Positions 21,173-49,332 are shown, counted from the stretch's first letter. The stretch is 64,000 bases of DNA from an uncultured Acidobacteriota bacterium (GCA_963789075.1 CAWBJQ010000012.1:23306-87305), one strand, 5' to 3'. The notes: a model not told the origin generated them from the sequence alone. A program made the numbers and translations.

Positions 21173-21964
21173 CTACATCTGACGAAACAGATGCAGGTAG
21201 TTGCGGCTCACCGGCAGAACGTCATCTCGACCCTTGACGTGAATCTCGGCCGTTTCGTTGTCATGCCGCTTGACATGGCTGATCGCGCGCAGATTCACGA
21301 CGACCGACCGATGGACTTGCGCGAATTGTTCCGCATCAAGCTGCTCGAGCAGCTCCTTGAGCGGCGTCCGCACCACCGCCTCGGCCGGTCTCCCTCCATC
21401 GCGCCAGGCGACGATGGTGTACTTCGCGTCGGAGCGAAGGTAATCGACGTCATTGATCGCGATGAGGCGCACGGTATTCCCCGCTTGCGCGCGAATCCAT
21501 CGCAGCGCCTCGCTCTTGCCGCCGCCGCTCTGCAGCTTCGCGAGCTGCTCGCTCAGTTGCTGCAACAGCTGCTCGGTGTTGATCGCCGGCCTCGACGACC
21601 GCACACGCTCTTTGAGACGGCTCACGGTTTCCGCGAGCCGCGCCTGTTCGACCGGCTTCAGCAGGTAGTCGAGTGCGCCCTGCGCGAAGGCCTGTACCGC
21701 GTAGTGATCGTACGCGGTCACGAACACGAGATGCGCGCGCCGGCCGATGTGGTTCGCGGCATCGACACCGGAGAGGCCCGGCATGTGGACGTCGAGGAAA
21801 CAGATGTCGGGATGACGCTCGTCGAACAACCGAACCGCCTCCCGCCCGTTCCGCGCCTCGGCGACAATCTCGAGCTCGGGCCACACGGTCGCAAGCTGGC
21901 GCCGCAGCGCGTCGCGCAGCAGCGGTTCATCGTCCGCGATCAACGCTGTCGCGTCGGTATTCAT
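21173..21964 (-). CDS. LytTR-family response regulator (receiver plus LytTR DNA-binding domain), intact
   Basis: MNTDATALIADDEPLLRDALRR..ICFLDVHMPGLSG..LVFVTAYDHYAVQAF..DYLLKP..VVNLRAISHV. Confidence 0.85.
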   Translation of the reverse strand: MNTDATALIADDEPLLRDALRRQLATVWPELEIVAEARNGREAVRLFDERHPDICFLDVHMPGLSGVDAANHIGRRAHLVFVTAYDHYAVQAFAQGALDYLLKPVEQARLAETVSRLKERVRSSRPAINTEQLLQQLSEQLAKLQSGGGKSEALRWIRAQAGNTVRLIAINDVDYLRSDAKYTIVAWRDGGRPAEAVVRTPLKELLEQLDAEQFAQVHRSVVVNLRAISHVKRHDNETAEIHVKGRDDVLPVSRNYLHLFRQM

Positions 21965-27510: not shown

Positions 27511-27601
27511 CGCGATTCGACTGCGGCCAACGAGGTCAGTGGCCGCCGCCCACGTGGCGACGTCGCCGGCCTGCTGCGTCTTTGGGCGGTCGGAGCGGGG
27601 C

Positions 27602-28498
27602 TCAACGCTGAGAAGCAGTTGTGGCGCTCGCGGTCAGCAGCTGTTTGATCTGCCGGACGGCGTAATCGACCTTCATCTCGAACATCCGCTTACCGAGCTC
27701 CGTGCTGGAGCGGCGTGCGTCCCCGGTAATGCCGTTGTTCACTTTGCGCTCCGGTCGCTCGCCTGCCGCAGGCACAGGATCTCCGACCGCCGTCTTGATC
27801 AGATCCTTGCGGACCCAACCGTACGAGCCGCCGAGATACAGCATCTCTGACGTGTCCGGAATGCCGGCATGCGAGCTCTTCGGATATCCGTTCGTCGCGA
27901 GCCACGTGTCGAAGTCGGCATTGGCTTTGTCGTACACCTCGCCGCAGAAGACGACGCGAATGCCCTGAGATGCATATTTTTCATCGAGCCTCTTCGCCAC
28001 CTCGCCAAGCTCCTTCTGCCCGCCGCCGTGATCGCCCATGAGCACCACGCTCTTGAAGCCGGTCTTGATCAATTGCTCGGCCACCTGTTCGTTCAGCGCC
28101 GCGTACAACTGTGGCGTCAGGCCGATCGTCCCAGGAAGATCAGCGCTCGCGTTGTTGGGAGAGAACGGCATCACCGGCGCGGCGATGGCGTTTCCGAGTT
28201 TGAGCGCGATGGCCTTCACGGTCGCACGCCCCATCAGGGTGTGCCCGCCGTTGACATTCTGCGGACCTCGCTGCTCCGTGCCGCCGTTGTAGACGAGCGC
28301 GGTGGTCTTCCCCGCCGCGAGCGCGCTCTTCACTTCCGGCCACGTCATCATCTCGAATTCGACCAGCGGCGCGCTGGTACGCAGCGTCGGAGACATGTGC
28401 GGCGCGGCGGCGGAGTGCGATCGGGGGGCCGTCTGTCCGATCGCGGGAGAGGCGAACGTGGCGAGCGTGCAAACCATTGCAAGCGAGCGATACAACAT
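27602..28498 (-). CDS. Creatininase-family amidohydrolase with signal peptide, intact
   Basis: MMTWPEVKSALAAGKTTALVYNGGTEQRGPQ..AAPVMPFSPN. Confidence 0.65.
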   Translation of the reverse strand: MLYRSLAMVCTLATFASPAIGQTAPRSHSAAAPHMSPTLRTSAPLVEFEMMTWPEVKSALAAGKTTALVYNGGTEQRGPQNVNGGHTLMGRATVKAIALKLGNAIAAPVMPFSPNNASADLPGTIGLTPQLYAALNEQVAEQLIKTGFKSVVLMGDHGGGQKELGEVAKRLDEKYASQGIRVVFCGEVYDKANADFDTWLATNGYPKSSHAGIPDTSEMLYLGGSYGWVRKDLIKTAVGDPVPAAGERPERKVNNGITGDARRSSTELGKRMFEMKVDYAVRQIKQLLTASATTASQR

Positions 28499-28527
28499 GT
28501 GTCAACTCCTGAATTGAAAGATGAACG

Positions 28528-29461
28528 CTATTTCTTTCCGACAAACTGCAGATCGACAGACTTCGGATCGGCTCCCACCACGGTCTTGTCCATCTTCGGC
28601 AGCACGTCCTCCATCGTCTCGAGATACAGACGCGTCGCCGTTTCGCGTGGCGCCTTCGCGTATTCCTGAGCGAGTCCGCTGAAGCGCGCGGCGTCGCCGG
28701 CCGCGGCATCCACCGTCTGCGTGTTGTAGGCGAGCGCCTCCTGCCCGGTTTTCGGCGGCCTCGCCCCGCGCCACCGGGACGACGCCGTTGGCGTAGCTCT
28801 CCGCTTCGCGGACGATGCGGTCGCTGTCGGCGCGCGCGGCCGCCACCAGCCGAAACGCGTCGACCACGTCGTCCGGCGGCACAATGGCGTCCAGCACGAC
28901 GCTCAGCACGCTCACTCCGCAGTCGTATCGACTCACGGTCGCTTCCGACAGCGCTTGCACGCGCTCCTGCACCGCCACCTTCTCCGTCGTGAGCAGGTCG
29001 TCGACGCCGCGGCCGGCGACCACCTGCGCCAGCGCGCCGAGCGTGGCGTTGGAGACGAGCGTGTTCACGTCGGCCGTGCGAAACAGAAAGGCCGCCGGAT
29101 CGCTGATCGCGAACTGCACGACGACCCGGATGTTGAGCACGTTGCGATCGCCGGTCAGGAACTGGGATCGGTTGACGGGCTCCGTCTCCTCGAGTCCGAG
29201 CATCAGCCGTTTGGTTTCGCGCACGCGCAGCTTGTGCACGCGGGCGATGGGCGCCGGCCATGTCCAGTGGACACCGGACGGCACGCGGCTCTCTTGCACT
29301 TTCCCCAGCCGCACGACCACGGCCTGCTGATCGGCCGACACGGCGTAAATGCCGGAGAGCGCATAGACGAGCAGCAAGGCGGGCACCACGACACGGATGT
29401 CGAGCAGACGGCGCAGCCACGGCTGCTGAACGCTGACCGGTTCGCCGACGTCAGCGAGCAT
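28528..29461 (-). CDS. hflK: HflK (SPFH/band-7); one frameshift near 28880
   Basis: TM, then AVVVRLGKVQESRVPSGVHWTWPAPIARV, then C-terminus GDAARFSGLAQEYAKAPRETATRLYLETMEDVL. Confidence 0.75.
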
Positions 29462-30356
29462 CGGGCACTTTCCCTTGCGTGAGCAGCTTGAGCAGTTCGG
29501 AATCGCCCGACAGGATGATCGACGTCTTCTCGTTCAGAATCTTTTTGTAGGACTCGAGCGTGCGGAGGAACTTGTAGAACTGGGGATTCCGCCCGTACGC
29601 CTGGCCGTACACACGCGCCGCTTCGGCGTCTCCTTCGCCCTTCAGCTTTTCAGCATCGCGGTAGGCCTCGGCCAGCAGCTCCGAGCGCTGACGATCCGCC
29701 TCCGCGCGGATTTTGATCGCCTGCTCCTCGCCCTGCGCGCGGTATTCCTTGGCGATGCGCTCCCGCTCCGCTCGCATGCGTGCGTAGACGGCGTACTTGT
29801 TCTGCTCGGGAAAGTTGATCCGTTTGAGCTGCAGATCGACGACGGCGATGCCGAACCGCCGCTCGGTCTCGACCGTCGCCGACGACCGCACCTGATCGCC
29901 GAGCGCCTGGACGCGCGCCCGTCCTGGCTCGATCGACAGCAGGTCCGACAGATCCACGCGACCGATGTCCGCCGCGAGGGTCGCCCACACGAGGTCGTGC
30001 AGCCGCATCTCGGCACCAGTGGCATCGCCGACCGTCTGCAGGAAGCGGCTGGGATCCGTGATGCGCCAGCACACGGCCGATCCGAGCACGAGGTTCTTCT
30101 TGTCCTTCGTCAGGAATTCCGACGACCCGGGGTCGTAGACGATCAACCGGCGATCGAATCGCAGAACCGATTCGAAGGGCCATTTGACGTGAAGACCGGC
30201 GTCGGAAATGGAGCGGGTTGGCCGCCCGAACAGCGTCACCATCGCCAGGTCGGTCTCCGACACAGTAAAGGTCGATGCCCAGACCAGTCCGGCCACCACG
30301 ACCACCGGAACGACACGCCAGTAGGATTGGTTCAGTTTCATCTCATCGTTCCTCAT
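29451..30356 (-). CDS. hflC: HflC (SPFH/band-7), intact
   Basis: MKLNQSYWRVVPVVVVAGLVW..GLHVKWPFESVLRFDRRLIVYD..YARMRAERERIAKEYRAQGEEQA..NPQFYKFLRTLESYKKIL. Confidence 0.8.
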   Translation of the reverse strand: MRNDEMKLNQSYWRVVPVVVVAGLVWASTFTVSETDLAMVTLFGRPTRSISDAGLHVKWPFESVLRFDRRLIVYDPGSSEFLTKDKKNLVLGSAVCWRITDPSRFLQTVGDATGAEMRLHDLVWATLAADIGRVDLSDLLSIEPGRARVQALGDQVRSSATVETERRFGIAVVDLQLKRINFPEQNKYAVYARMRAERERIAKEYRAQGEEQAIKIRAEADRQRSELLAEAYRDAEKLKGEGDAEAARVYGQAYGRNPQFYKFLRTLESYKKILNEKTSIILSGDSELLKLLTQGKVPDAR

Positions 30357-33346
30357 CTTCAGATGGCGCCGAGGTCTGCCCCAGGATCTTCAGCAGGTCA
30401 CCCTCACCGAGGAAGATCAGCGTGCGCCGGCCGCCCTTCCGATCGTCGGTGATGATCACGCGCTTGCCCGGCAGCACGGCTTCGAGCGCCTCCATCTGCA
30501 GCCGGAACATGGTCAGCACGGTGGTTCCGGCCTGCGACACGCGAGAGAGGAAGCGCGCCGAATCGCCCTGGCTGTGGTCGATGAGGCTGATCCGATAGCC
30601 GGCCGCCTCCTCCAGCTTTGCCTTGGCGTTGCCGCGCGCGATGGGGACCGATTCCTTAGCTGTAGGCGTCGGCCTCGTTGATGCGCGTCACGCGCTCCTC
30701 TTCGGCGCTCGCCACATCGCGAAACGCATCGACGACTTCGACGGGCGGATGCACGTCGGCCAGATGAATCGCGAGCACGTCGACGCCGGCGCCGACCGCT
30801 GCAAGCCGCGCTCGCACCGCGTCGGTCCACCGCTCCTCGAGGTCTTGTCGATCCGTCGTCAGCATCGCGTCGAACCGATAACCGGCGGCCAGATTGCGAA
30901 GCGTGCCCTCCGCGACCATCCGGACGAGCGCCTCGCCGTCTCGGACGCCGAAGAGATACCGCGCCGGATCGGCGATCGTGTAGTGCAACACGGCATACAG
31001 CTCCAACATGTTTTCGTCGCCAGTGAGCACGAGGTTCTCGTCGGCGACCTGCTGCACCTGCCCTTCGCCGTGCGGCGTGTTCCATTCGAGATCGATCGCA
31101 CCGACGGGCGCGACGGCCGGCGAGCGAAACCCGAGTTCGAGCACGCGAACCCGTCGCGGCGCATGACGCGTGACGACCTCGATCGGCCACGGCGCCCGGA
31201 GGTGCAGACCTGGCGACAGTTGGGCGTCCACGAGGCGGCCGAAGCGCTGGACCGCGGCCGATTCGCCAGGGCCAAGGACGACGACGCCCGACAGCAGCCA
31301 CGCGGTGGCGACAACAGTCGGGACGCCCCGAGCCAGGGCACGACGGTGACGCGTCAGCCCGCGGTCGAGTGCGTCGCCGAGCGCTTTGCGCCAATGTCTT
31401 CCGCGCTCGGTCGCCTTCGCACCCCACTCGCGCCACGCGCGCGGGTCGCGGACGCGATGCTCGATCAAGAGGCTGACCGATCCGAGGATCACGACCAGCG
31501 ACACGATTTGATGGAGCAATGCGGACGCCGCCGGTTTCAGGTAGCCCATGCCAGCGGCCAGAATCGCCAGTGCATTGACGCCCAGCGCAAAGGCGATGAT
31601 GTTGAACCGCACCCTCCAGACGGTCTGTCGCGCCAGCACGATGAGCGCGGCGATCGCCTCGAGCTTCGGCTCCAGCGCCACCACCTGCGCGGCTTCCGCC
31701 GACAGGTCGGCCGCGCCACGGCCGAAGGCGAGGCCCACGTGCGCAGCGGCGAGCGCCGGTGCATCGTTGACCCCGTCCCCCACCATCAGGACTCGTCGAG
31801 GCGCCGCCGAGAGCTCTTTCAGCCGCAGCAGCTTGTCTTCCGGCAGCAGGGCGGCGTACACGTGGTCGCGCTCGATGCCGACGTGCTCCGCGACCGCCTC
31901 CGCGACCGCACGTTCATCTCCTGTCAACAAATAGATGTCTTTGATCCCTGCCGTCTTGAGCGCCGCCACCGCCGCAACCGCATCCGCGCGCGGTGTGTCC
32001 ATGAGGCCAATGAGCCCGGCGAGCACGCCGTCGACGGCGACGACGACGTGTGTGTCGCCGGGGCGGCCGCTGCTCGCCACGAAGTCGTCGATGTCGGCGG
32101 CCGCGTCTGAGCCGAGCTCCCGCAGGAACGCGACGTTGCCAACGTGTACGTCGCGACCGTCGACACGCGCGGCGACACCCTTCCCAGGCCGCGACGAAAA
32201 CGTCTCGGTCGGCGGCAACTCGAGCTCACGCCGCGTCGCCTCGGCAACCAGAGCGCGCCCGACAGCATGCTCTGAAAGCTGTTCGGCCGTTGCGGCGAGC
32301 CGCAGCACTTCGTCCGCGCTGAAGTTGGCAGCGGGAACGATGGTGGTGACGGAAGGACGTCCCTCCGTCAACGTGCCCGTTTTGTCGAACGCGACAGCGT
32401 TCACACCGCTGAGGGCCTCGAGTGTATCGCCGCCCTTCACGAGAATGCCATCGCGGGCCAGGCGTGCGATCGCCGCCGCGAAGGCGGCCGGCGCCGCGTA
32501 GACCAGCGCGCACGAACAGGCGACGAGCAGCACCGCAGACGCGCGAAGCGCTTCGCCGGTGAGGAAGTACACGACGACGGCACTCACGAGAATCACCGGC
32601 AGGAACACCTGCGATAGCCGATCGGCCGTTCGCACGATCGGCGGCCGGCGGCGTTTCGCGGCAGCAACGAGGCGGCCGATGCGCGCCAGCGTCGTGTCGG
32701 TGCCGACCTGCTCCGGCCGAATCTCGAGGGCGCCGTGGTCGAGAATGGTCCCGCAATAAACTTGCGCGCCCGGCCGCTTGAGCACGGGAATCGATTCGCC
32801 GGTGACCAGCGACTGGTCGACGGTGGCTTCCCCGCCGGCCACCACGCCGTCGACAGGAAGACGCTCCCCGCCCCGCACCACGACGCGATCGCTCAATCGC
32901 ACGTCGGCGCTGGCCACGTTCATCTCGTGGCCCTCGCGAATGACTGTCGCGCGATCGGGCTGAATGGACATCAACCCGACGATCGCGCGCTCGGCGCGAT
33001 GCATCGCCCAGTGTTCGAGCCCGTCGCCGACCAGCACGATGATCACGACTTCCGCAGCCGCCAGGAACTCGCCGGCGAGAGCGGCGATCAGGGCCGCGAC
33101 AGCGATCGCGACGTCGTAGGTAATCCGCGCCGAACGGATGGCCTGCCAGGCCCTCATGGCGAGCGGATAGGCGCCTAACGCGGCGACGAGGAGGGCGGTA
33201 TTCAGGCCGAAGATCTGTGTGAGCACGCCGGTCGCGTTCAGCCCGACGGTGACGATCGCAAACGCGAGCAGCCCGACGCGACCCTGCCATGTCGGCGGCC
33301 ACGGCTCGGCGTGATCGTGGTGGTGGAGATCCTCGGCATCTATCAT
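30343..33346 (-). CDS. P1B-type heavy-metal-translocating P-type ATPase (His-rich N-terminus) continuing in-frame into an HflK-like SPFH domain; one frameshift near 30640 inside the SPFH part
   Basis: MIDAEDLHHHDHAEP..TGESIPV..DKTGTLTEGRP..GDGVNDAPALAAAHVGLAFG..last TM LGSVSLLIEH. A 45-aa linker has no stop or start. Then TM, ..AVQRFGRLVDAQLSPGLHLRAPWPIEVV..AFRDVASAEEERV, then shifts to IARGNAKAKLEEAAGYRISLIDHSQGDSARFLSRVSQAGTTVLTMFRLQMEALEAV..*. Confidence 0.6.
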
Positions 33347-33537
33347 GACGAGAGAAGTTCATCCCGTCTCGTCAACCAGCGACAGAAGTTTTCAACCAAC
33401 TCCACTGTGAGACCGCCCAACGGTCCGGCCTGTGGCATGGACGGACGTTTGCCATCCCGGTCCACTCGACCCGCCTTTTCGGCTTTCCGTTGGGTTCGAC
33501 TGATCCAAATGCGTGTGTGCGACCATACTGTCGCCGC

Positions 33538-34233
33538 ATGGACACAGTGCTCGACGTCGAGGATCTCTCGGTCAGCTTCGGCGCGACACCAATCCTCCGT
33601 CACTTGAGCTTTCAAGTCGTCCGAGGATCGTCGGTCGCGATCATCGGACCGAACGGCGCCGGCAAGACCGTTCTGCTGCGGGCCCTCATTGGCGCCACCC
33701 CGCACACCGGGAGCGTTCGTTGGGCGCCAGGGATCCGCTTTGGCTACGTCCCGCAAAAACTGGATCTCGTGCGCGACGTACCGATCACCGGCTCGGACTT
33801 TCTACACGCGAAGGCGGCGTGCGACGGGCGTGCGACGACGCCGGCCGCCGACGTCCTGCGTGCGGTCGGCTTGTCGGAGCGGGCGTGTGCGCAGTCCATC
33901 GGGTCGCTCTCCGGCGGGCAGTTCCAGCGGCTGCTCGTGGCGTTCGCGTTGATGGGCGAACCCGACGTCCTGCTGCTCGACGAACCGACCGCCGGCGTCG
34001 ACGAGAACGGCCAGGAACGTCTCAACGAGCTCGTGCACCGGCTGCAGAGGGAGCGCGGCCTCACCGTCCTGCTCATCTCACACGATCTGTCGGTCGTGTC
34101 TCTTCACGCGACGAATGTGCTGTGCCTCGGACCCGATCGCGTCTGCTTCGGTCCGCCGCGGACGATCCTCACGCCAGAGCTGCTGAACGAAATCTACGGA
34201 GCACCGGTCGCATTTCATGTCCATGACCATTGA
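33538..34233 (+). CDS. Metal-type (Znu/Mnt/Tro-like) ABC transporter ATP-binding protein
   Basis: IIGPNGAGKTVLLRAL..LSGGQFQRLLVAFAL..LLLDEPTAGVD. Confidence 0.8.
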   Translation: MDTVLDVEDLSVSFGATPILRHLSFQVVRGSSVAIIGPNGAGKTVLLRALIGATPHTGSVRWAPGIRFGYVPQKLDLVRDVPITGSDFLHAKAACDGRATTPAADVLRAVGLSERACAQSIGSLSGGQFQRLLVAFALMGEPDVLLLDEPTAGVDENGQERLNELVHRLQRERGLTVLLISHDLSVVSLHATNVLCLGPDRVCFGPPRTILTPELLNEIYGAPVAFHVHDH

Positions 34234-34990
34234 GGCGTTGCTACTCTCAGCCGCGATGGCGGCCGCGGCCGGACTCGTCGGCTGCTTTGCCGTGATGCGG
34301 CGAATGGCGCTCGCCGGCGACGCGCTGTCGCATGTGGCGCTGCCCGGGATCGCCGTCGCGCTGGCGCTCCACGTCCATCCGTTGTTCGGCGCCGCAGCGA
34401 TGCTCTTCTTCGGCGCGCTGATCGTCTGGGCGATCGAAGATCGGTCGCGACTCGCAACCGAAACGATCATCGGTGTGATTTTTTCCGCTGCGCTCGCCGT
34501 TGGGAGTCTGGCAACATCCGGCGAAGACCTCATTGAAGCGCTGTTTGGCGGCGCGGCGGCGAGCCCTTCCCGCTTGGAGACCGTCTTCGGGCTGGTCGCG
34601 GCCGTCGGCGTGATGCTGTTCGTGCTCAGCCGCAAGAACGCACTCGTGATCGCCCTCGTGTCGCCCGATATCGCTCGAACGGTGGGGATCAACGTTCAGC
34701 GGCTCAACTTGCTCTACCTGGAAATGTTCGCGCTGACGGTCGCGCTCGGCCTTCGTTACCTTGGCGTGCTGCTCATGGGTTCGCTCATCATCATTCCTGC
34801 AGCGACCGCCAAACGCCTATCCGGCAACCTAAATCAAATGTTGGCCACGGCCGCGATCATCGCCATCGCGGCAACGCTGGCCGGATCCGCGACGGCCGCT
34901 TCGCTCCATCGGCCCACGGGTCCGCTCATCGTCTCGCTCGCTGCCGCCGGCTTCTTCCTCAGTTTTTTGGTGCCTGAACGAAGCGCCTGA
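34217..34990 (+). CDS. ABC-3 family metal permease (ZnuB/MntB-like)
   Basis: The 257-aa polytopic ORF ..DALSHVALPGIAVA.. overlaps the ATPase gene by 17 nt. Confidence 0.75.
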   Translation: MSMTIEALLLSAAMAAAAGLVGCFAVMRRMALAGDALSHVALPGIAVALALHVHPLFGAAAMLFFGALIVWAIEDRSRLATETIIGVIFSAALAVGSLATSGEDLIEALFGGAAASPSRLETVFGLVAAVGVMLFVLSRKNALVIALVSPDIARTVGINVQRLNLLYLEMFALTVALGLRYLGVLLMGSLIIIPAATAKRLSGNLNQMLATAAIIAIAATLAGSATAASLHRPTGPLIVSLAAAGFFLSFLVPERSA

Positions 34991-35008
34991 GCTCTCACGG
35001 CGCTGGCG

Positions 35009-36523
35009 TTACTCGGACGCCAGGCGCAAGGCGTTGAACAGGCATGCGAGCTCCGCGCCCGCTCGAACCAGAACCGCGACCACCGGGCTCAGGACGCCCG
35101 CGGCCGCCAGCGCGACGCCTGTGACATCGACGAGCAGCGTTCCCGTGATGTTCGCGACAATCACGCGGTGCGCTCTTCTGGCGAGGCACACGACGTCGAC
35201 CAGCGACCCGAAATCGTGGCGCGGCAGCATGACGTCCGCGGTCGTGTCCGCAGTCGCGATCGCGGGTTCGATCGTGATGCCCACGTGGGCCGCCTCGAGC
35301 GCCGCCGCGTCTTCGATCGCATCGCCGACCATCGCCACGCGTCGCCGCGTCATCAGATCCCGTACGCGCTGACCCCGTTCAGCGGGACCCAGATCCGGCT
35401 CAAAATCGTCGACCTTCAGCTCTCGGGCGATCGGTTCCGCCGCTATTCGTGAATCATCGGTGAGCAGATGCGTCTGGATGGCCAGCGACTTGAGTCCGGC
35501 GATCGCGCGCGTGGCATCGGGTCGCGGCCGCTTCGCAAGCGCGATGGCGCCCAGGTACCGCCCGCCGCGCACGACAAAGACGGTCACGGACGAAGCGTCG
35601 GTGGAAGCGCCAGCCAGCCGTCCCTCAGTCACGAAGGCCGTGCTCCCGACCAGTATCTCTTCGCCGCAGTGCACCGCCCTGACCCCACATCCCTGAATCA
35701 GGGAGAATTCGCCGGGTTCCGGCACGGTGAGGCGTTTCTCGGCCGCCGATCGGACGATCGCGCGGCCGATGGGGTGGTTCGACACTCGTTCGGCAATGGC
35801 CGCAGACTTCAGCACGTCGTGGACCGACACGCCCGTCGCCGGATAGATCGTGCTCACCACGGGTTCGTCGAAGACCATCGACGCCGTTGAACCGAGCACG
35901 ACGGTGTCGCACGACCACAACGCTTCGAGACACCTGCCACCCTGGACGATGGCGCCGCGACCGAGGCTTCGAGCGACCGCGGCCGATACGGCCACGCGTG
36001 CGCTCCGGCCCACGCCGCACGTCACAACGACGGCGACTGACGCGGCGGTTCGGACGTCGCGTGTCACCAGAAGCGTCACCGCGGCTGCACTCAGACCGCA
36101 GTAGACAAGGACTCGGCTCAGGCGATCGGCGGCGTCTTCTATCGGCGCGCACAGACGCTGGCCGCGGTCGATGGTGTCGACCATGCGCGCGGTCGCCCAC
36201 TCCCCCACGATCGACACCAGCCGGAATGCCAATGCCGTAATGAGCGCGGCTGCGAGCTCGCCCACGGCGAGCTCCGCGCCGATGACAATGGTGACCGACA
36301 CCGCCGTCGTGACGCGGCGCGCCGCGACGTCGTCGATCGCACGTTTCAGAATGGAAGAACCGCCAACGATGACGGCGACGAGGGGGAGAAGGGCGGGATG
36401 CCCGGACGGATTCAGGTGGAACCACGTCAGCAGGGCGGCGCCACTCAGCGTGGCAATCTGGAGCAGATCGAGGGCTGTTGCCGGCGGGCCAGAATCAGGC
36501 CCGCCGGCGACGGCTGAGATCAT
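35009..36523 (-). CDS. Degenerate, actuator-domain-less P1B-ATPase homologue with every catalytic motif substituted (putative pseudo-ATPase), intact 504 aa
   Basis: Aligns in one frame with P1B ATPases: CPC becomes VVTCGVG; DKTGT becomes DTVVLGSTASMVFDEP; the conserved HP is kept (SNHPIGRAIV); TGDN becomes LTDDS; GDGxNDxP becomes GDAIEDAA. The TGES domain is missing. The ATG overlaps the upstream receptor stop as TGATG. Confidence 0.65.
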   Translation of the reverse strand: MISAVAGGPDSGPPATALDLLQIATLSGAALLTWFHLNPSGHPALLPLVAVIVGGSSILKRAIDDVAARRVTTAVSVTIVIGAELAVGELAAALITALAFRLVSIVGEWATARMVDTIDRGQRLCAPIEDAADRLSRVLVYCGLSAAAVTLLVTRDVRTAASVAVVVTCGVGRSARVAVSAAVARSLGRGAIVQGGRCLEALWSCDTVVLGSTASMVFDEPVVSTIYPATGVSVHDVLKSAAIAERVSNHPIGRAIVRSAAEKRLTVPEPGEFSLIQGCGVRAVHCGEEILVGSTAFVTEGRLAGASTDASSVTVFVVRGGRYLGAIALAKRPRPDATRAIAGLKSLAIQTHLLTDDSRIAAEPIARELKVDDFEPDLGPAERGQRVRDLMTRRRVAMVGDAIEDAAALEAAHVGITIEPAIATADTTADVMLPRHDFGSLVDVVCLARRAHRVIVANITGTLLVDVTGVALAAAGVLSPVVAVLVRAGAELACLFNALRLASE

Positions 36524-39033
36524 CAGAATGTGACGCCCACGTTGACCTGATAGGCGCGCGGTGTCACGAAGTGCGTGCCGCTGAACGTCGAGAGGAAGTT
36601 GTACAGCGCTTCCTTGTTGGTCAGGTTGATGACGCTGAAACGGACCCGCACCTTCGCCTTCTGTCCCTGGAAGACGTTGTCGACGCCAAGGCCGAGATCG
36701 AACAGATTGCGGGGTGCGATGCGCGGCGGATTCGTCACATCGTCCTCGGTCCCTTCGGCGGGAATCCTCAGACGACTCGCCGTGAAGTTCGAGGGCGTGC
36801 AGTCCGCGGCCGTGAGTTGATGACCAAGGCTCGCGGGTACGCCGCCGCACGAGAATCCAATCGCCGCCTGCTGATCCGCCGTGAGGCCGAGTGCGTCCTC
36901 CAGGCTGCCGACCGAGCCTGCGACCAGGCCGGAGTCGTACCGCCACGACAACGCCGCCCACGCGCCCGTCCGCTTCTCGAAGACATACTGCAGGTTGGTG
37001 GTCGAGTTGAATTTCTGATCGTGGTCGATCCGGAAGTCGCCAGCCGGCTGCTCCAGCAGAATGCCGCCCACTCCAGGCGGCGAGTAGATGGCGTTGGTGT
37101 GGGCCATCACGAAGAACGCACTGAACCCTCCGTGCTCGACGAGATTCACGCGGCCGGTGAACCCGTTGATCCGCGAATGATCCCACGCGACGGGGAACGC
37201 GATTGGCGTGTTGAACAGGACGTTGAAGTCGTAGCCGTTCTGCGTGTGCTTGTTGAAATAGCCGAAGTCGGCCACAACCCAACGGCCGATTCCCTGCTGG
37301 GCGCCGACCTCGATCTCGTTACGAACGCCCGGCGGCGGCGGCGCGCCTACGCCAAATAGCCCGTTCAAGCCGACGCCTGCCGACAGCAGCAGGTTCTCGT
37401 TGTACGGCGTTTCCATGGTCCGCCCGTAGGACGCCCGCAGCACGGTTCCGGGACCGGGAACCGCGTACGACACGCCCACGCGCGGCTGGAGCTCTGTCTT
37501 CGTGGTGAGCCCGTCGTAGTGATCGAGGCGCAACCCGGCCTTGATCGTTGCATCGCCGGCCTTGATGTCATCCTGAATGTAGGCCGCCTGCTGCTTGATC
37601 GTCCCGGACTGGTCGTAGACGAGCGGTGATCCGCCGGCCGACAAGTCGAACGGCGCGAATGTCGGATCGAAGTTGCCGTCGGGGCCTGCAAACGTCGGGT
37701 CCGTATTGTCGGTGACGCCGAGGGTGAAATTCTCGTGGAGCTTGGTGGCGCTGACCGAGCCGCCGACTTTCACGTTCTGATTGCCCGTCGTGTACGACAC
37801 GTCGGCCTTGACGCCGTAATTGGTCAGCCTGCGATTCTGACTGATCGTGGCGGGCGTGTCGGCAAACGGATCCGCGCTCGGCTGGTACGTCAGATGGTCC
37901 TGGCGGACGAATCCGTTGGCCGTGAAAAGGGTCTTCGATCCGATGACGCGCGTATAGCCAGGCGCGATGTTGAACGAGTTGATGTTCTGGTGCTGCGTCT
38001 GGGCAATCTGATCGTACGTGTTCGGCACATCGAAGCTCGACCTGGCCGCCTGAATGTTGAGGTGCAGCGAATTGATGTCGTCCGGATGAAAGTCGAGGCG
38101 GTTGAAGAGCGACAGGCCGTTGCCGGTGTCGTGCAGCGCGGTGAATTCCGGCGGATCGAGGAACCGATCGGTGCGCATCCCGGACAAGGAGAGAAACTCG
38201 CCGACCTTACTTGAACCGGCGCCCATATTGAACTCACCGGTCGGGCTCTTGAACGAGCCGTATCCGACCGACGCGGTGCCGGTCGGCTTGGCCTGATCGA
38301 GACCGGACTTCGTGACGATGTGGACCACGAGGCTCGTTTTGTCACCGTATTCGGCAGGCGCGACACCCGTGATGATCTCCATCGACTCCACCGCATCCTG
38401 CGAGATCTGGTTCGAGTACAGCTTGCTCTGCTGGTCGGTGATCGGTTGGTTGTCGATCGAGAACTGTGTTTGCGCGTGGTCGCCGATCGGGTGGAAGAAG
38501 CCGTTGGAATCGGCCACGACACCGGGCGACGCGAGCGTAATCACTTGATTCAGCCCCGATGACGATTCGAGCGGCATCTTTTCGATGACGCTTCGGTCGA
38601 TGTCCGTGTGGGCCGTCGGATCGCGTTCCACGAGATCTTCGGTGTGGCCGACGACCTGCACCGTGCTCGTGGCGCCCTCCAGTTGGAGAACAAGGTCGAG
38701 GTCCATCGGCACCGCGGTCCGCACGTCCACGTCGCGCTCGAGCGCCTGGAACCCTTGCGCCTGAACCGACACGTGATAGGGGTTGGGCGGCAAGTTGCTG
38801 AACACGTACTTGCCGGACGCATCCGTGGTCGCCGTGCGGGAGAACCCGGTCACCGGGTTGCTGATCTTGACCTCAACCGCCTGCATCACGCCGCCGGTGG
38901 GATCCTTGACCGTGCCGCGCACAGTGCCCGCGCCGCCGAGGCTTTGAGCACTGGCGCTTCCGCTCACCAACAAGACAAGAGCCACCAGGCACGCCGCAAT
39001 ACCTGATGTAAATCCTCGCACACGAATACGCAT
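36523..39033 (-). CDS. TonB-dependent receptor with carboxypeptidase-regulatory-like N-domain, intact
   Basis: Signal peptide MRIRVRGFTSGIAACLVALVLLVSGSASAQ..GTVRGTVKDPTGGVMQAVEVKISNP..ASGKYVFSNLPPNPYHV...beta-barrel...YQVNVGVTF*. Confidence 0.85.
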   Translation of the reverse strand: MRIRVRGFTSGIAACLVALVLLVSGSASAQSLGGAGTVRGTVKDPTGGVMQAVEVKISNPVTGFSRTATTDASGKYVFSNLPPNPYHVSVQAQGFQALERDVDVRTAVPMDLDLVLQLEGATSTVQVVGHTEDLVERDPTAHTDIDRSVIEKMPLESSSGLNQVITLASPGVVADSNGFFHPIGDHAQTQFSIDNQPITDQQSKLYSNQISQDAVESMEIITGVAPAEYGDKTSLVVHIVTKSGLDQAKPTGTASVGYGSFKSPTGEFNMGAGSSKVGEFLSLSGMRTDRFLDPPEFTALHDTGNGLSLFNRLDFHPDDINSLHLNIQAARSSFDVPNTYDQIAQTQHQNINSFNIAPGYTRVIGSKTLFTANGFVRQDHLTYQPSADPFADTPATISQNRRLTNYGVKADVSYTTGNQNVKVGGSVSATKLHENFTLGVTDNTDPTFAGPDGNFDPTFAPFDLSAGGSPLVYDQSGTIKQQAAYIQDDIKAGDATIKAGLRLDHYDGLTTKTELQPRVGVSYAVPGPGTVLRASYGRTMETPYNENLLLSAGVGLNGLFGVGAPPPPGVRNEIEVGAQQGIGRWVVADFGYFNKHTQNGYDFNVLFNTPIAFPVAWDHSRINGFTGRVNLVEHGGFSAFFVMAHTNAIYSPPGVGGILLEQPAGDFRIDHDQKFNSTTNLQYVFEKRTGAWAALSWRYDSGLVAGSVGSLEDALGLTADQQAAIGFSCGGVPASLGHQLTAADCTPSNFTASRLRIPAEGTEDDVTNPPRIAPRNLFDLGLGVDNVFQGQKAKVRVRFSVINLTNKEALYNFLSTFSGTHFVTPRAYQVNVGVTF

Positions 39034-39376
39034 AACACCTCTTTCGCGAGCAGAACGGACCTTCCGCCCGAACCATTTCGTCCGGAGCACACTAGCAGCC
39101 GACGACCAAGCCCACGACCAGAACCACACGGATGGTTGGCCAGATCTCGTGGATGGCCGGCATCGGCCAACGAATGGATAGGCATCGGCACGGAGTGCGC
39201 ATCGCGCGCCGGAGTCGCGTCCTTCCCGGCGGCCCACGTCCGTTCGATGCCGTCGCCCACTCGTTCGTCGAATTGAACCGTTCGTGCCCGTCGGTCGTCG
39301 CCCGTTCGCGGACTTCAGATATCGGCGCGGCGCCGGGCAGCGCTATCGTGCTTCTGGCGTCAGCGACATCTATTCA

Positions 39377-41363
39377 ATGAGCGAGCTCCTGAATCTCATC
39401 GGCATCACCACCGGTGTTGCGCTTTACGCAATGTTGTTGACACTTGTTGTTCGGGCGACTCGCGCTTCGTCCGGCCACCAGACCTTCGATCCAGTGCTCC
39501 TCGCAACGGCGTTGCTCGGCTTGGTCTGGAATCTCTGCGCACTGCCCGCCTACGAGCTGCCGAAGGTCGGCATCGTCGGACCATTTCCCTGGCTGGTCGC
39601 GATCGGTTTCAGCGCACTTGGGTTCCTGCCGGCGGCGGTCGTGCACTCGATCCTGCGAGAACGACCGACGGGTATTCGTGGAGGATTGAAGCGAGCGCTT
39701 GCGGCGGCGGCGTATACCGTGAGCACCGTGGCGCTCGTGCTCCAGTTTCGCGCGGCGGCAACGGGCGCCACGGTGCCTTCGGCGCTCGCGATGGAACTGT
39801 TGACCTACGCCTTCATCGTGCTGGTCCTGCCGCTCGCGGCCGTCACCCGAGGGCAGCCTGGTGCGCGCCGCGCGCTGTGGATTGCTGCGCTCGCCACGTT
39901 CGCCGTGTCGGCGCTGCATCTCAGCCAGATCCACCAGGGCGAAGCGTCCTGGCCGGTTGAGCTGCTCGGCCATCACGCATCCGTGCCGTTGGCCTTCGCG
40001 ATGTTGTACCAGGACTATCCGTTCGCCCTGGCTGATCTGTTTCTGAAGCGGGCCGTGGCGCTTCTGCTGCTCGTCGTCACCTCGTTTGCGGCGATCGCGC
40101 TCTTCGCCGCTTCGTCTGCCGCGTTCGCGCGCTTCGTTCAGATGGATCCGCGCCAGATGGGCGTGCTCGTGACCGTTTGGATTGGGACGGCGTTGGTGTA
40201 CCCGACACTGCGTCGCAGTGCATTCTGGTTCGTCGACACCGTCGTGCTCCACCGGCCGAACTATCGCTCGCTGCGCGCGACGATCGCGAGAAGGCTTCAG
40301 GCCAGTGAATCGACACCGGAGGTGTTGTCCGACGTGTGCGAGCTGCTGGCTCAGGCCCTCAACGCGCGCGCCGTTGAGTGGCACGCAACAACGACTCGGG
40401 GGGACGAGGCGCTCGGCAGCGCCGGCGTGCTGGTCGATGCACGCGCCGTCGAGGCGGCGCAACGGCTCGCCTCATCATCGCTCGAGCCGAATGCGTGGAC
40501 GCGCATCCTCCGCCCGGCGGCCATTGTCGTGGTGCCGACGGCCGAGGAACCGCGGCATGCCCTCATCGTCGACGAGCTGATGGGCGGCCGCCGCCTGCTG
40601 TCCGATGAAGTGACGACGCTCGAAACCGTCGGACTCCTGGCGGCTCGGCGCATCGACGCCATCCGCATTACCAGCGAGCGCCACCAACGCGAGCTGCGAG
40701 AGCAGGAAGTCGAAAAGCTCGCCAGCGAAGCGGAGCTCCGCGCCCTGAGAGCACAAATCAACCCGCATTTCCTGTTCAACGCGCTGACGACGATCGGATA
40801 TCTGATTCAGACAGCCCCCGACCGCGCCCTCGAGACGTTGCTGCGGTTGACTCTGCTCCTGCGCGGTGTGCTGCGATCGGAAGGCGAATTCACCACGCTC
40901 GGTCGAGAGCTCGGAGATCGTCGAGTCGTACCTCGACATCGAGCGCGCACGCTTCGAACAACGCTTGCGAGTCCGCATCGACGTACCGCGGACGCTCGCA
41001 GGCGCCCGCGTCCCGCCCCTTCTCCTGCAGCCGCTGGTCGAGAACGCGGTCAAGCACGGCATCACGCCTCTCAGAGGCGGCGGCGAGGTCATCGTGTCGG
41101 CCAGGCTTCAACCGACGGATCGCGGAAAGACCGCGCTCGTGCTGACCGTGCGAGACACCGGAGCGGGGACGACGCCGGCGAACCTGGAGCAGCGACGAAG
41201 CGACGGCGTCGGTCTACGGAACGTTGAGCGGCGTTTGGCCTGCCAGTACGGCGCGGCGGCGGCGTTGACCGTCCAGACCGCACCACGCGAGGGGACGACC
41301 GTCACCATCCTGCTGCCGGCGGAATTCATCGCGCGAGAACATGCAGCCACGAGAGTGATATGA
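39377..41363 (+). CDS. LytS-type sensor histidine kinase with multi-TM N-domain; one frameshift near 40910
   Basis: INPHFLFNALTTIGYLIQ (H-box), then shifts to LLLQPLVENAVKHGITP..VRDTGAGT. Confidence 0.75.
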
Positions 41364-42142
41364 ACGCGCGTCTCCGCGTCGCGATCGCTGATGACGAGCG
41401 GCCGGCGCGCTCGTTTCTCCGCTCGCTGCTTCGATCGTTCGAAGACGTGCTCGTCGTCGGCGAAGCCGCCTCGGGTCATGAGGCAGTCACGATCATCGAA
41501 CAGGAACGGCCGGACCTGGCGCTGCTCGATCTCCACATGCCGGAGCTCGACGGCTTTGGCGTCGTCCGCATGCTGAAGAAGCAAACGATGCCACTCATCG
41601 CGTTCGTCACGGCGTACGACGAATACGCGGTCCGCGCGTTCGAGGTGAACGCCGTCGACTATCTGTTGAAGCCGGTCGACAAGAGCCGCCTGCGAGCGAC
41701 GTTGAACCGGGCGCAGGAGCGGATCGAGCACGCGGAAATCGTGGACGAGCAGCGGACGAGGGTGGGCACGGCGATCGAGGCGTACGAAACCGCCGCCAGA
41801 GGACCTTATCTCGAGCGGATCCCGGTGCGCCGCCGGGACGAGATCGCGCTCGTGCCCGTTCAGCAGATCGCGTCGATCGTCGCCGAGGGGGAGCTTCTGC
41901 ATCTGGTGACGGTGACCAACGACAAGTTCACGATCACGTATCGCCTCAAGGATCTCGAAACGCGCCTCGACCCCGCGCGGTTCATCCGGCTCGGCCGCGG
42001 GACACTCGCCAACATCGACGTGATCTCGAAGGTGGGCGTCATGCCGGGCGGCACGCACGTCGCGATTCTCAGCAACGGGCAAAAGCTTCAGGTGAGCCGT
42101 CTGCAGTCCCGGGTCTTGCGCGAGCGGTTCCTGCGGCTGTAA
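41360..42142 (+). CDS. LytTR-family response regulator, intact
   Basis: MNARLRVAIADDERPARSFLRSLL..LALLDLHMPELDG..AFVTAYDEYAVRAFEVNAVDYLLKP..LVTVTNDKFTITYRLKDLE. The ATG overlaps the upstream TGA as ATGA. Confidence 0.85.
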   Translation: MNARLRVAIADDERPARSFLRSLLRSFEDVLVVGEAASGHEAVTIIEQERPDLALLDLHMPELDGFGVVRMLKKQTMPLIAFVTAYDEYAVRAFEVNAVDYLLKPVDKSRLRATLNRAQERIEHAEIVDEQRTRVGTAIEAYETAARGPYLERIPVRRRDEIALVPVQQIASIVAEGELLHLVTVTNDKFTITYRLKDLETRLDPARFIRLGRGTLANIDVISKVGVMPGGTHVAILSNGQKLQVSRLQSRVLRERFLRL

Positions 42143-46764: not shown

Positions 46765-49332
46765 ATGCCATTGCTTCGTTCGCTCGCTGCCGCCCTTGCC
46801 CTCGCGTGCTGTACCACCATCACCATGGCGGCGCAGTCGCCGGCACGCGGCGTCGTGGTGTCGGGGACGGTGCAGGATCAGACCGGCGCCGTGCTGCCGG
46901 GAGCCACACTCACGCTCGCGCCGGCGGACGGCGCGGCATCGGCACCCATCGTCTCCGACACGGCCGGCACGTTCCGATTCGAGCGGGTCGGGCCGGGGAC
47001 GTACGAACTCCGCGTCGAGTTTCCCGGATTTACGACCAACGTGACGCACATCCGCGTGGCGGCCCGCGCCCCGAGTGCGCTGACGATCGTCATGCAGATC
47101 GAGGGGCTGTCGCAGGAAGTGTCGGTGTCGGGCGGCGGCGACCAGACCAGCGGCCGCGGCGCCGCCAATCTCGACGCGGTGGCGGTGGACGCGAAGGCGC
47201 TCGACGACATGCCCGTGCTCGACGGCGATGTGGTCGCCGCGGTCTCGCGCTTTCTCGATTCGAGCGCCCTCGGCACCAACGGCGCGACCATCGTCGTCGA
47301 CGGCGTGGAGGTGAATGCGCTCTCCGTCTCCTCGTCCGCCGTCCAGCAGATCAAGATCAATTCCGATCCGTACGCGGCCGAGTTCATGCGGCCGGGCCGC
47401 GGGCGCATCGAGATCATCACCAAACCGGGAGGCCGCGACTATTCCGGCACGTTCAACCTGCGATTCCGCGACTCGGCGCTCTATGCGACCAACGCGTTCG
47501 CGGCGACCAAGCCGCCCGAGCAGCGGCGCGTGTTCGAGGGCAGCTTGGGCGGACCGATTCAGGGCTTCGACAAGACGAATTTCGTGGTCTCCGGATCGCA
47601 CGATGCGGAGGACAGCCAGTCGATCGTGTTCGCCGATACGCTCGCGGGCAAGGTGCAGGCGAATGTGGCGACGCCGTTCACCAACACGCTCGCCTCGGCG
47701 ACGATCAACCGGCAGCAGGGCGAGAAGAACACGATCTCCCTGCGGTTCTCGCATCAGCAACGGAGCAGCTCGAACCAGGGGATCGGCGGCATCAATCTGC
47801 CGGAGGCCGGACGCAGCACGAGCCAGCGCGAAGACGACACGACCTACTCGCAGCAGACGGTCATCACGCCCGCGCTGCTGCACGAGATCAAGCTCATGGT
47901 CGGCTTCGAGCATCAGCCGTCGACCAGCCTGAGCGCGCAGCCGCGTATCGTCGTCAACGACGCGTTCGTCGGCGGCGGCGCACAGGCCGACTGGCTGCGC
48001 ACCGAGAAGCATTTCACGCTCCTCGATGCGGTCACGTGGTCGCCGGCCAAACACGTCATCAAGGCGGGTGTGAACATTCCCGACTGGAGCTGGCGCGGCT
48101 ACGTCGACAACACCAACACCGGCGGCACGTTCTACTTTTCGAGCCTGCAGAACTACGCGCTTGGCCAGCCCTACTCCTTCACCCAGCAGCGCGGCGATGG
48201 GCATGTCGCGTTCCTGGAAAAGGTGATCGGCCTGTTTCTGCAGGACGAGATCCGTCCGCGCTCGAACCTGACGATCGATCTCGGCGTGCGGTACGACTGG
48301 CAGACCGTGTTTCACGACACGAACAACGTGGCGCCGCGCGCGTCGTTTGCCTACATGCCGGACCAGCGCGGGCGCACGGTCATCCGCGGGGGCGCCGGCG
48401 TCTTCTACGATCGCACCGGACCGGGACCGATCCAGGATCTGCTGCGGTTCGATGGCCAGCATCTCCAACAGGTCGTCATCGTCGATCCGAGCTATCCCAG
48501 TCCGCTGGCGCCTGGGCAGAGCCTCGGCTCCGAGCCGTCGAACGTCGTCGTGCTGGCGCCGAACGTGACGATTCCCTACAGCCTGCAGTACAGCCTCGGC
48601 GTCGAGCAGCAGCTCGCGCCGAAGACGACGCTCGCCGTGACGTTCGTGGGATCGCACGGCTACAACCAGTTTCTATCGCGTGATCTGAACGCACCGGCGC
48701 CGCCGCTCTTTCTCGCGCGGCCCGATCCGAGCCGCGGGGTAGTGCGCGAGATCGAATCGACCGGCACCATGCGGACCAGCTCGCTGCAGGTCACGCTGCG
48801 CGGTCAGATGACGAAGGCCGTCAACGCCACCGCGCAGTATTCGTACGGCCGCGCCTCGAACAACACGAGCGGCATCGGCTGGATGCCGCCCAACAGCTAC
48901 GATCTCACGCAGGAGTACGGCCCAGCCGACTGGGATCGCCGGCACGGCCTCGAGCTCTTCGGCGCCTGGACCGCCGGCCGCTGGTTCACGCTGGGCGCGT
49001 CGTTCGAGGCATACACCGGACGTCCGTACTCGCTCACGCTCGGCACCGACGTCTTCAACACCGGCAATGCGAATGCCCGTCCTGCGGGCGTGCCGCGCAA
49101 CAGCCTCCGCGGACCGGGCTATGCGTCGCTGGATCTGCGCTGGTCGCACGACCTGGCGCTTTCGAGCGGCCCGAAAACCCGAACGCTCACACTCGCCGTC
49201 GACACCTTCAACGTCCTCAACCGGGAGAACGACAACTACTTCGTCGGCAACCTGAGCTCGCCGTTCTTCGGTCAGGCGGTCTCCGCATCAGCGCCGCGGC
49301 GGGTTCAGTTCTCGTTGCGCACGCGCTTCTAG
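46765..49332 (+). CDS. TonB-dependent receptor with carboxypeptidase-regulatory-like N-domain, intact 855 aa
   Basis: Signal peptide, GVVVSGTVQDQTGAVLPGATLTLAP..DTAGTFRFERVGPGTYELRV..., C-terminus RRVQFSLRTRF. Confidence 0.85.
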   Translation: MPLLRSLAAALALACCTTITMAAQSPARGVVVSGTVQDQTGAVLPGATLTLAPADGAASAPIVSDTAGTFRFERVGPGTYELRVEFPGFTTNVTHIRVAARAPSALTIVMQIEGLSQEVSVSGGGDQTSGRGAANLDAVAVDAKALDDMPVLDGDVVAAVSRFLDSSALGTNGATIVVDGVEVNALSVSSSAVQQIKINSDPYAAEFMRPGRGRIEIITKPGGRDYSGTFNLRFRDSALYATNAFAATKPPEQRRVFEGSLGGPIQGFDKTNFVVSGSHDAEDSQSIVFADTLAGKVQANVATPFTNTLASATINRQQGEKNTISLRFSHQQRSSSNQGIGGINLPEAGRSTSQREDDTTYSQQTVITPALLHEIKLMVGFEHQPSTSLSAQPRIVVNDAFVGGGAQADWLRTEKHFTLLDAVTWSPAKHVIKAGVNIPDWSWRGYVDNTNTGGTFYFSSLQNYALGQPYSFTQQRGDGHVAFLEKVIGLFLQDEIRPRSNLTIDLGVRYDWQTVFHDTNNVAPRASFAYMPDQRGRTVIRGGAGVFYDRTGPGPIQDLLRFDGQHLQQVVIVDPSYPSPLAPGQSLGSEPSNVVVLAPNVTIPYSLQYSLGVEQQLAPKTTLAVTFVGSHGYNQFLSRDLNAPAPPLFLARPDPSRGVVREIESTGTMRTSSLQVTLRGQMTKAVNATAQYSYGRASNNTSGIGWMPPNSYDLTQEYGPADWDRRHGLELFGAWTAGRWFTLGASFEAYTGRPYSLTLGTDVFNTGNANARPAGVPRNSLRGPGYASLDLRWSHDLALSSGPKTRTLTLAVDTFNVLNRENDNYFVGNLSSPFFGQAVSASAPRRVQFSLRTRF

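Follow-up and report, generated by a model that had tools for sequence, protein, structure and literature searches.

A catalytically dead, actuator-less P1B-ATPase homologue coupled to a putative TonB-dependent receptor gene in uncultured Acidobacteriota

What use could a bacterium have for a metal pump that lacks the residues on which pumping depends and whose reading frame is open from end to end? The question is raised by a stretch of 64,000 nucleotides from an uncultured Acidobacteriota bacterium (GCA_963789075.1 CAWBJQ010000012.1:23306-87305), in the following referred to as the window, in whose coordinates all positions are given. On its minus strand, a receptor gene is directly followed by a gene, here termed X, which encodes a homologue of the P1B-type metal ATPases without an actuator domain and without the aspartate that is phosphorylated in these pumps. 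A first-pass annotation had described the pair as a TonB receptor translationally coupled to a dead paralogue of the pumps, and a metal-uptake or signalling module is indeed plausible. X probably has a non-pumping role now. The reading that we favour, and to which we would give about an even chance, is that X is a selection-maintained pseudo-pump from a GAC-type group of P1B ATPases, which may persist as a folded inner-membrane protein and serve as a non-transporting accessory of a kinase, of the receptor, or of both.

Gene X and its predicted fold

The gene and the sites on which the argument turns are the following.

35009-36523, minus strand: gene X, 504 amino acids plus stop (open reading frame and translation), a dead, actuator-less P1B-ATPase homologue with eight transmembrane helices and P and N domains
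36182-36187, minus strand: actuator-loss junction R113/M114, in alignments with relatives a clean gap, 105 codons long and in frame
36014-36025, minus strand: VTCG in transmembrane helix (TM) 4, residues 167-170, aligned to CPC of ZntA and to G-A-C of the active parent family
35879-35893, minus strand: GSTAS, residues 211-215, in place of DKTGT, with the phosphorylated Asp changed to Gly211
35771-35791, minus strand: ERVSNHP, residues 245-251, the retained N-domain nucleotide-pocket motif (E...HP), with SNHP at residues 248-251
35450-35461, minus strand: TDDS, residues 355-358, in place of TGD(N/S)
35303-35326, minus strand: GDAIEDAA, residues 400-407, in place of GDGxNDAP (consensus GDAVEDA in clade A, the closest relatives of X)
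35051-35068, minus strand: VRAGAE in TM6, residues 486-491, in place of the family motif IHVSSE

As the annotation had proposed, the protein is collinear with P1B ATPases. The profile TIGR01525 matches X from profile position 132 to the profile end with 221.5 bits (E 2.4e-65), which does not reach the curated cut-off of 346.25, compared with 518-538 bits for the active relatives of X. The ZntA structure 4UMV aligns with residues 96-502 (E 1.5e-39), and structures of CadA and CopA are matched collinearly as well. The HAD-type hydrolase model PF00702 scores 62.1 bits in X against a gathering threshold of 26.4. A Pfam search did not detect the actuator model PF00122 (E1-E2_ATPase), and both the TGES loop and the actuator domain are absent from X by alignment and Pfam, so that the claimed deletion of the whole domain is borne out by the gap between R113 and M114. 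The reading frame, described earlier as intact, comprises 504 open codons with neither stop nor frameshift, and orthologues share its start codon and the N-terminal peptide MxSAVxxG.

The replacements reported for DKTGT, TGDN and GDGxNDxP, as well as the retained HP of the N domain, were all seen at the residues listed above. The nucleophile of HAD motif I is thus Gly211, with no Asp, and the catalytic Lys of the P domain is Arg in clade A, to which X belongs. The conserved Pro downstream in TM4 corresponds to Arg176. The case of the CPC motif is different: it is replaced, as stated, but HMMER and MAFFT align it with V-T-C (residues 167-169) and not with TCG, one position off, and since the active parent family already carries G-A-C at this place, the missing CPC does not belong to the inactivation of X and was discarded as a mark of catalytic death. 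Judged by the replaced residues and the missing domain, X is unable to run the P-type (Post-Albers) cycle.

To what extent the remainder still folds was addressed with an AlphaFold2 model built from an alignment of 109 relatives, which reached a predicted local distance difference test (pLDDT) score of 87.3 and a predicted TM-score (pTM) of 0.82. The eight-TM core (MA, MB, M1-M6), the HAD-type P domain and the N domain with E...HP and GxG are all present in the model, in which the actuator-loss junction is crossed by a helix (90-118), an eight-residue loop and a second helix (127-154). Foldseek returned CopA, ZntA and CadA as top matches, with TM-scores of about 0.7 and an E of 1e-26 to CopA and ZntA. 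X is hence predicted with high confidence to fold as an eight-TM protein with P and N domains. Whether the transmembrane metal site is preserved as well had been posed as a question, and here the answer is negative, as ion-site residues are gone or replaced (Pro to Arg176 in TM4, His to Arg487 in TM6); N458 and D466 in TM5 and E491 in TM6 are conserved. In the N-domain pocket, E245, H250, G278, G280 and G293 are invariant or nearly so across 20 dead sequences, and we take them to be the counterparts of CopA E457, H462, G490, G492 and G501. Compared with the P1B ATPases of known structure (ZntA 4UMV/4UMW, CadA 7QBZ, CopA 3RFU/7R0G), X therefore shares the collinear core, the eight helices and the P and N domains, but has no actuator, no phosphorylatable Asp, no intact TGD or GDGxND, no CPx motif and no N-terminal metal-binding domain.

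Relatives of X and selection on its reading frame

Relatives of X, retrieved by searching 5.8 billion proteins, fall into three kinds; a further profile search covered 1.84 billion cluster representatives, and scans of genome and metagenome contigs with a dead-clade profile gave 4 and 6 loci, respectively, with genomic context obtained by exact-protein look-ups. All data on relatives come from metagenome-assembled genomes (MAGs) and metagenomes. The closest relatives, P0002-P0010, are 52-69% identical to X and make up clade A, which counts at least nine proteins, all equally dead. No member has the catalytic Asp (ASTTS, ASSAL and similar, with Gly, Ala or Thr at the nucleophile position), every member has GDAxEDA, and six retain an actuator scaffold in which TGQP, TGQS or TGRR stands for TGES. 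Four of the nine, like the whole of clade B, lack the TM4 Cys; no clade-A member has kept the helix-breaking Pro of TM4, mostly in favour of Arg; and the change of His to Arg in TM6 is shared by eight of the nine. Clade B, about 45% identical to X, has no actuator and carries DQTGT or DEVGA together with GDGxDDAP.

The third kind are active pumps, which account for 86 of the 109 aligned sequences and keep TGES, DKTGT, TGD and GDGxNDAP. All 86 have GAC in TM4, embedded in the invariant AGACG(V/I)AAGTP, and their TM6 reads IHVxSE. This active parent family has eight transmembrane helices and no N-terminal HMA domain (P0011-P0120, P0123-P0147; locus L021, 4926-6812), is often encoded after a TonB-dependent receptor, and shares the family-specific motifs EEILVG and FVxRGGRYLG with X. 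In the source data, these proteins are annotated as 'heavy metal translocating P-type ATPase'. The TM4 motifs listed for P1B-1 to P1B-7 are CPC, CPH, SPC, PCP, SCA and CSC (PMC13460109, PMC4932525); because GAC is absent from these lists, the parent group appears uncharacterised, and on the strength of its motifs it may represent an unclassified P1B subgroup.

In neighbour-joining analysis, clades A and B each received 100% bootstrap support. The other actuator-less member of clade A, P0004, groups with P0005 and P0006 (73%), and its pairing with X as sisters received 0%, so that a single actuator deletion common to both was rejected; the actuator was lost more than once, after catalytic death. 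Isolated degenerate members also occur elsewhere in the GAC family (P0121, P0128, P0131, P0135, P0165 and P0171), and to judge from the aligned sequences, catalytic death and actuator loss are recurrent within the group. The possibility that X is an outlier in clade A was likewise rejected, as its 47% identity to active relatives lies within the clade range of 46-51%. Orthologues that retain DKTGT and TGES, which would have pointed to a locally decayed pseudogene, do exist in the same operon slot (L005, L008, L009, L012, L013 and L021), but the close relatives in clade A are all dead, which argues for an old, clade-wide death and not for local decay.

Is the dead protein then still under selection? 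Pairwise ratios of nonsynonymous to synonymous substitution rates (dN/dS, NG86), calculated from the nucleotide sequences of six clade-A genes, range from 0.20 to 0.36 at dS of 0.53-1.09, values that are rough, given the use of NG86 on a genome of 66% GC with dS near 1. X itself gives 0.26-0.36 against clade members and 0.22-0.39 per structural region, with 0.63 for its first 15 codons. Against the syntenic orthologue in L001, X reaches 0.264, close to the 0.225 of the receptor; lower values (0.03-0.11) are seen for the genes of the ABC proteins, the regulator, the SPFH-fused pump, creatininase and Band-7 proteins. Per domain, dN/dS spans 0.17-0.42 and is never near 1: it is lowest in the N domain (0.17), 0.22 in the actuator scaffold where this is retained, and highest in the transmembrane helices MA-M4 (0.37-0.42), the least constrained region. 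The active orthologues in the same slot show 0.10-0.22, that is, the dead proteins evolve two to three times faster and are still far from neutral. The selection check suggested by the annotation thus came out in favour of purifying selection, with no sign of neutrality. An unconstrained 1.5-kb reading frame would hardly remain open in every lineage at such divergence, and from its sequence record X is not a locally decayed pseudogene.

Receptor, two-component system and neighbouring metal genes

The genes that accompany X on its upstream side, and the region between them, are these.

36523-39033, minus strand: receptor gene, 836 amino acids, with signal peptide, CarboxypepD_reg, weak Plug, putative large beta-barrel and C-terminal Phe
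36521-36525, minus strand: TGATG junction, where the receptor TGA (36525-36523) shares one base with the X ATG (36523-36521; TTC TGA TG)
39377-41363, plus strand: LytS-type histidine kinase with multi-TM N-terminus, His_kinase and HATPase_c; frameshift near 40912
41360-42142, plus strand: LytTR response regulator (BtsR-like), whose ATG overlaps the kinase stop (ATGA, 41360-41363), a second translational coupling
39240-39308, minus strand: CGAACGG cluster of three exact direct repeats and one CGAACGA, in the 343-bp divergent intergenic region 39034-39376

The identification of the 2.5-kb gene upstream of X as a TonB receptor can be upheld with some reservation. PF13620 (CarboxypepD_reg) is found with 71.5 bits, the Plug model PF07715 reaches only 19.3 bits, below the Pfam cut-off of 23.9, and neither a direct Pfam barrel match nor a phmmer match in the PDB was obtained. 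The putative assignment is drawn from homologues of this very well conserved family, which form more than 120 clusters at 75% identity or more, some of them with PF00593 or PF25183 and some named 'TonB-dependent receptor [Vicinamibacterales]' in the source data, and from structure comparison: the AlphaFold2 model is poor (pLDDT 59, about 25 in the plug region; shallow alignment of 75-96% identical sequences), and all top Foldseek matches of this low-confidence model are TonB-dependent transporters (TM-scores 0.35-0.5). That the receptor is specific to the X module was rejected, as L020 has the receptor alone and the homologue clusters are numerous. Further CarboxypepD_reg receptors are found in the window at about 16411-16836 and 46828-47217.

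The overlap of stop and start codons, claimed as TGATG, could be placed at exact coordinates. A TGATG or TAATG junction recurs in L001, L016, L017 and L018, so that the overlap is kept in five of six clade-A loci including the window; the exception is L002, which has lost the ATG by mutation and starts from a GTG located 26 nt further downstream. On the evidence of this shared base, X is translationally coupled to the receptor gene, and comparison of gene neighbourhoods across clade-A loci confirmed that the pairing is conserved.

The divergently transcribed kinase has a PF06580 core and several transmembrane helices, lacks a periplasmic domain, and its N-terminus matches no Pfam model. The best-scoring model for the regulator is BtsR (168 bits, below the cut-off of 246). 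The order LytTR regulator, LytS kinase, and divergent to these receptor and ATPase, is found in every locus with enough flank (more than 10 loci), with the ATPase slot being dead in the window, L001, L002, L016, L017 and L018 (clade A) as well as in L003 and L004 (clade B), and fully active in L005, L008, L009, L012, L013 and L021. In L003, kinase and regulator adjoin the dead ATPase without a receptor between them, and L019 and L020, both without the ATPase, also lack an intact kinase/regulator pair. The ATPase is hence accompanied more consistently by the LytS/LytTR system than by the receptor.

Within the divergent intergenic region, three of the 34 CGAACGG matches in the window (both strands) fall within 69 bp, and the first two repeats occupy conserved positions in the aligned loci. 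LytTR regulators bind such direct repeats, the AlgR site being CCGTTCGTC. The CGAACGG repeats resemble the AlgR type and are candidate sites of the regulator.

Some additional observations concern related genes. Downstream of the clade-B ATPase in L003 (11779-14439), receptor-like fragments with 34-56% identity to the window receptor are spread over several frames and many short reading frames, representing either a degraded paralogous receptor or poor assembly; the adjoining ATPase reading frame is intact. A second LytS/LytTR-like pair lies at about 21602-22686 on the minus strand of the window and shows 32% and 42% identity to the kinase and regulator of the module. Between receptor and active ATPase of L009, a LytTR-like segment (8838-9260) is 41% identical to the C-terminal half of the regulator.

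On the other side of X, two sets of genes with a putative link to metals are found.

33538-34233 and 34217-34990, plus strand: ZnuC-like ABC ATPase and ZnuB-like ABC-3 permease, respectively, convergent with X
30379-33346, minus strand: intact P1B pump with a C-terminally fused SPFH/Band-7 (HflK-like) domain, with TGES, DKTGT and GDGVNDAP present; frameshift near 30660

The ZnuCB pair had been taken as a sign of a metal-related function. It is present, but no binding-protein gene stands beside it and the adjacency is not found in all loci: it occurs in the window, L001 and L018, and only a C-terminal ABC-3 fragment is seen at the edge of L016. ZnuCB is not found within 10 kb in L002, which makes the adjacency weaker evidence. 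The SPFH-fused pump, located 1.7 kb downstream of X, carries ACSCA in TM4 (VACSCALVYAAP), and an SCA/CSC motif at this place is of the P1B-6/7 type (PMC13460109). Its fusion is conserved in L001 (998 amino acids, 83% identical), whereas L021 encodes the pump and three Band-7 proteins in individual genes. In addition, an active GAC-type pump together with a repressor of the RcnR/FrmR family (MSHTIRQ...) is encoded in L001 (768-2964) and L002 (1030-3134), 1-5 kb from the module. Residues H3, C35, H60 and H64 of the repressor presumably match the Ni/Co fingerprint of RcnR. This link hints at a divalent metal similar to Ni or Co as substrate of the GAC family, and the active paralogue hints at a redundancy through which pumping by the operon copy could have become unnecessary.

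Competing explanations and a possible role of X

The main rival explanation is slow decay, which we consider unlikely: the pump would have become useless in this lineage, and X would be a relic whose reading frame is held open by weak or indirect constraints such as the toxicity of truncated membrane proteins or the translation of the operon. Several observations are consistent with such a scenario, among them that X has lost more than any other member of its clade (the A-domain is missing and TGD has become TDD), that selection is relaxed two- to threefold relative to active orthologues, and that P0010 looks frameshifted or truncated. Furthermore, X is missing from the closely related L019, which shares 92-94% nucleotide identity with the window and has an intact receptor (96% amino acid identity). 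Two deletions or replacements distinguish this sister genome: the first (L019 9616-9618) removed the counterpart of window 39338-41644 with the kinase and the receiver domain of the regulator, and the second (L019 12586-14415) that of window 27580-36448, an 8.9-kb block with the Band-7 and creatininase genes, the SPFH-fused pump, the ZnuCB-like pair and all of X downstream of roughly codon 25. X is accordingly dispensable on short timescales, and the joint loss indicates that the ATPase belongs with the two-component system. The solitary receptor of L020 would fit decay as well. The frameshifts in neighbouring genes of the island could likewise be taken for decay. The annotation had spoken of a window full of them; relative to the L001 orthologues, three were found, at about 28752 (Band-7 gene), 30660 (SPFH-fused pump) and 40912 (histidine kinase). 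As genes are similarly split in related MAG loci (the kinase of L001 in three pieces, ATPase607 of L002, the receptor of L005), these breaks may however be technical, i. e., assembly errors from long-read indels. Decay is made less likely by the dead state being common to a fully supported clade in which all reading frames are open at 52-76% identity, by the constraint seen in every domain, including the actuator scaffold in those relatives that kept it, and by the unremarkable distance of X from active relatives.

A second possibility, which has in our view a slim chance of being correct, is a passive conduit. The transmembrane bundle of X would then act as a channel or facilitator without ATP hydrolysis and, together with the TonB-dependent receptor, provide an uptake route across two membranes. 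The coupling to an outer-membrane importer would fit this explanation, as would the retention of all eight helices and of the conserved polar residues in TM5 and TM6. These helices are, however, the least constrained part of the protein, the TM4 Cys has been lost in part of clade A and all of clade B, and Arg has taken the place of the TM4 Pro in most and of the TM6 His in nearly all clade-A members; moreover, we know of no precedent for P1B proteins operating in a channel mode.

Equally improbable is that X modulates or anchors an active P1B pump, either the SPFH-fused or the RcnR-linked GAC-type one, as many pseudoenzymes do with their active paralogues. An active P1B pump is indeed encoded within 2-9 kb in the window, L001, L002 and L021, the N and P domains are well conserved, and P-type ATPases capable of dimerisation are known. 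Yet the potential partner varies, being SPFH-fused in the window and L001 and only RcnR-linked near L002, with none visible near L004 or L017, and X is co-translated with the receptor and not with a pump. Finally, that X is still an enzyme and drives transport by splitting ATP or another phosphoester in some non-canonical way is hardly credible, as the conserved pocket residues of the N domain stand against a nucleophile replaced throughout clade A, an Arg for the P-domain Lys, a changed GDGxND and a missing A-domain with its TGES, and to our knowledge HAD chemistry offers no bypass for the nucleophile.

The favoured reading of X as a selected, non-transporting accessory protein, for which the Post-Albers cycle is lost for good, would work as follows. 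X and the receptor would be produced in constant proportion under a LytTR-controlled promoter. X would no longer move metal and would act as a co-sensor or scaffold of the membrane-embedded kinase, of the receptor pathway, or of both, with Arg176 (TM4) and Arg487 (TM6) probably filling the former cation site and locking one conformation, while nucleotide binding may survive in the conserved pocket of the N domain. There is precedent for transporters that act as co-sensors of kinases (PMC7096432), and X may conceivably be a 'trigger transporter' that kept a signalling or partner-binding role once pumping had become redundant, for example, beside the RcnR-linked active paralogue of L001 and L002. 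Such an accessory or co-sensor role would be in line with the shared gene order.

Besides the observations already named in connection with slow decay, i. e., the extra losses in X, its faster evolution, the apparently truncated P0010 and the dispensability of X in L019, several points weigh against this reading. The evidence for an interaction of X with kinase or receptor is co-occurrence in gene neighbourhoods, and the presence of active pumps in the same slot means that the two-component system may simply regulate the pump, in which case the link would be purely transcriptional. It is also odd for a protein in contact with a membrane partner that its transmembrane helices are the least constrained region, and the dN/dS values carry the roughness mentioned above. 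A more far-reaching version, which we put forward as tentative and think rather less likely to hold, is that a P1B pump has repeatedly been turned into a stand-alone pseudo-ATPase, with an Arg-occupied ion site, a retained nucleotide-binding head and a dispensable actuator, that serves a TonB-dependent receptor and a kinase of the LytS type as signal-input or scaffold subunit; if so, it would be the first pseudoenzyme module built on a prokaryotic P-type ATPase, and it would stem from the unclassified GAC subgroup.

How does such a protein compare with known systems? Its nearest active relatives are the GAC-type pumps (P0012 in L005, L008, L012, L021, and the paralogue in L001 and L002), which are about 47% identical and, where they occupy the same slot, follow kinase/regulator and receptor in the same gene order as in the X operon; they differ in keeping TGES, DKTGT, TGD, GDGxNDAP, AGACGxAAGTP in TM4 and IHVxSE in TM6. 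The trigger transporters of the pairs UhpC-UhpB, DcuB/DctA-DcuS and LysP-CadC are similar by analogy, as a transporter-fold protein stands beside a membrane signalling system (PMC7096432, PMC5703999). These are, however, secondary carriers, most of which still transport, whereas X has a P-type ATPase fold with its catalysis destroyed, and its interaction with a signalling partner is putative. A P-type fold recruited to signalling is also seen in the P4-ATPase-like domains fused to apicomplexan guanylate cyclases, some of which have degenerate catalytic motifs. Those proteins are eukaryotic, fused to an effector and belong to a lipid-flippase subfamily, in contrast to the stand-alone bacterial P1B homologue in a receptor operon. 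The BtsS/BtsR system resembles the module in its regulator, its PF06580 kinase core and its multi-TM sensor region, but the N-terminus of the module kinase is without a Pfam match, and no described counterpart of an operon of receptor and P1B-like protein was found. In line with the statement of the annotation that no equivalent is described, a full-text search of the literature retrieved neither catalytically dead bacterial P-type ATPases nor a module of receptor, P1B protein and LytTR system.

The active version of the module, consisting of kinase/regulator, TonB-dependent receptor and GAC-type pump, also combines an outer-membrane importer with a P1B ATPase in a way that has not been described. 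The dead module, seen only in uncultured Acidobacteriota, will be of interest to specialists in P-type ATPases and pseudoenzymes. If the favoured reading is true, nature has produced variants that are frozen in a single conformational state, and annotation overstates the number of metal-resistance genes in soil Acidobacteriota. P-type ATPases are regarded as obligate pumps, and a dead clade that is under selection and has undergone repeated losses would show a second, non-transport use of their fold.

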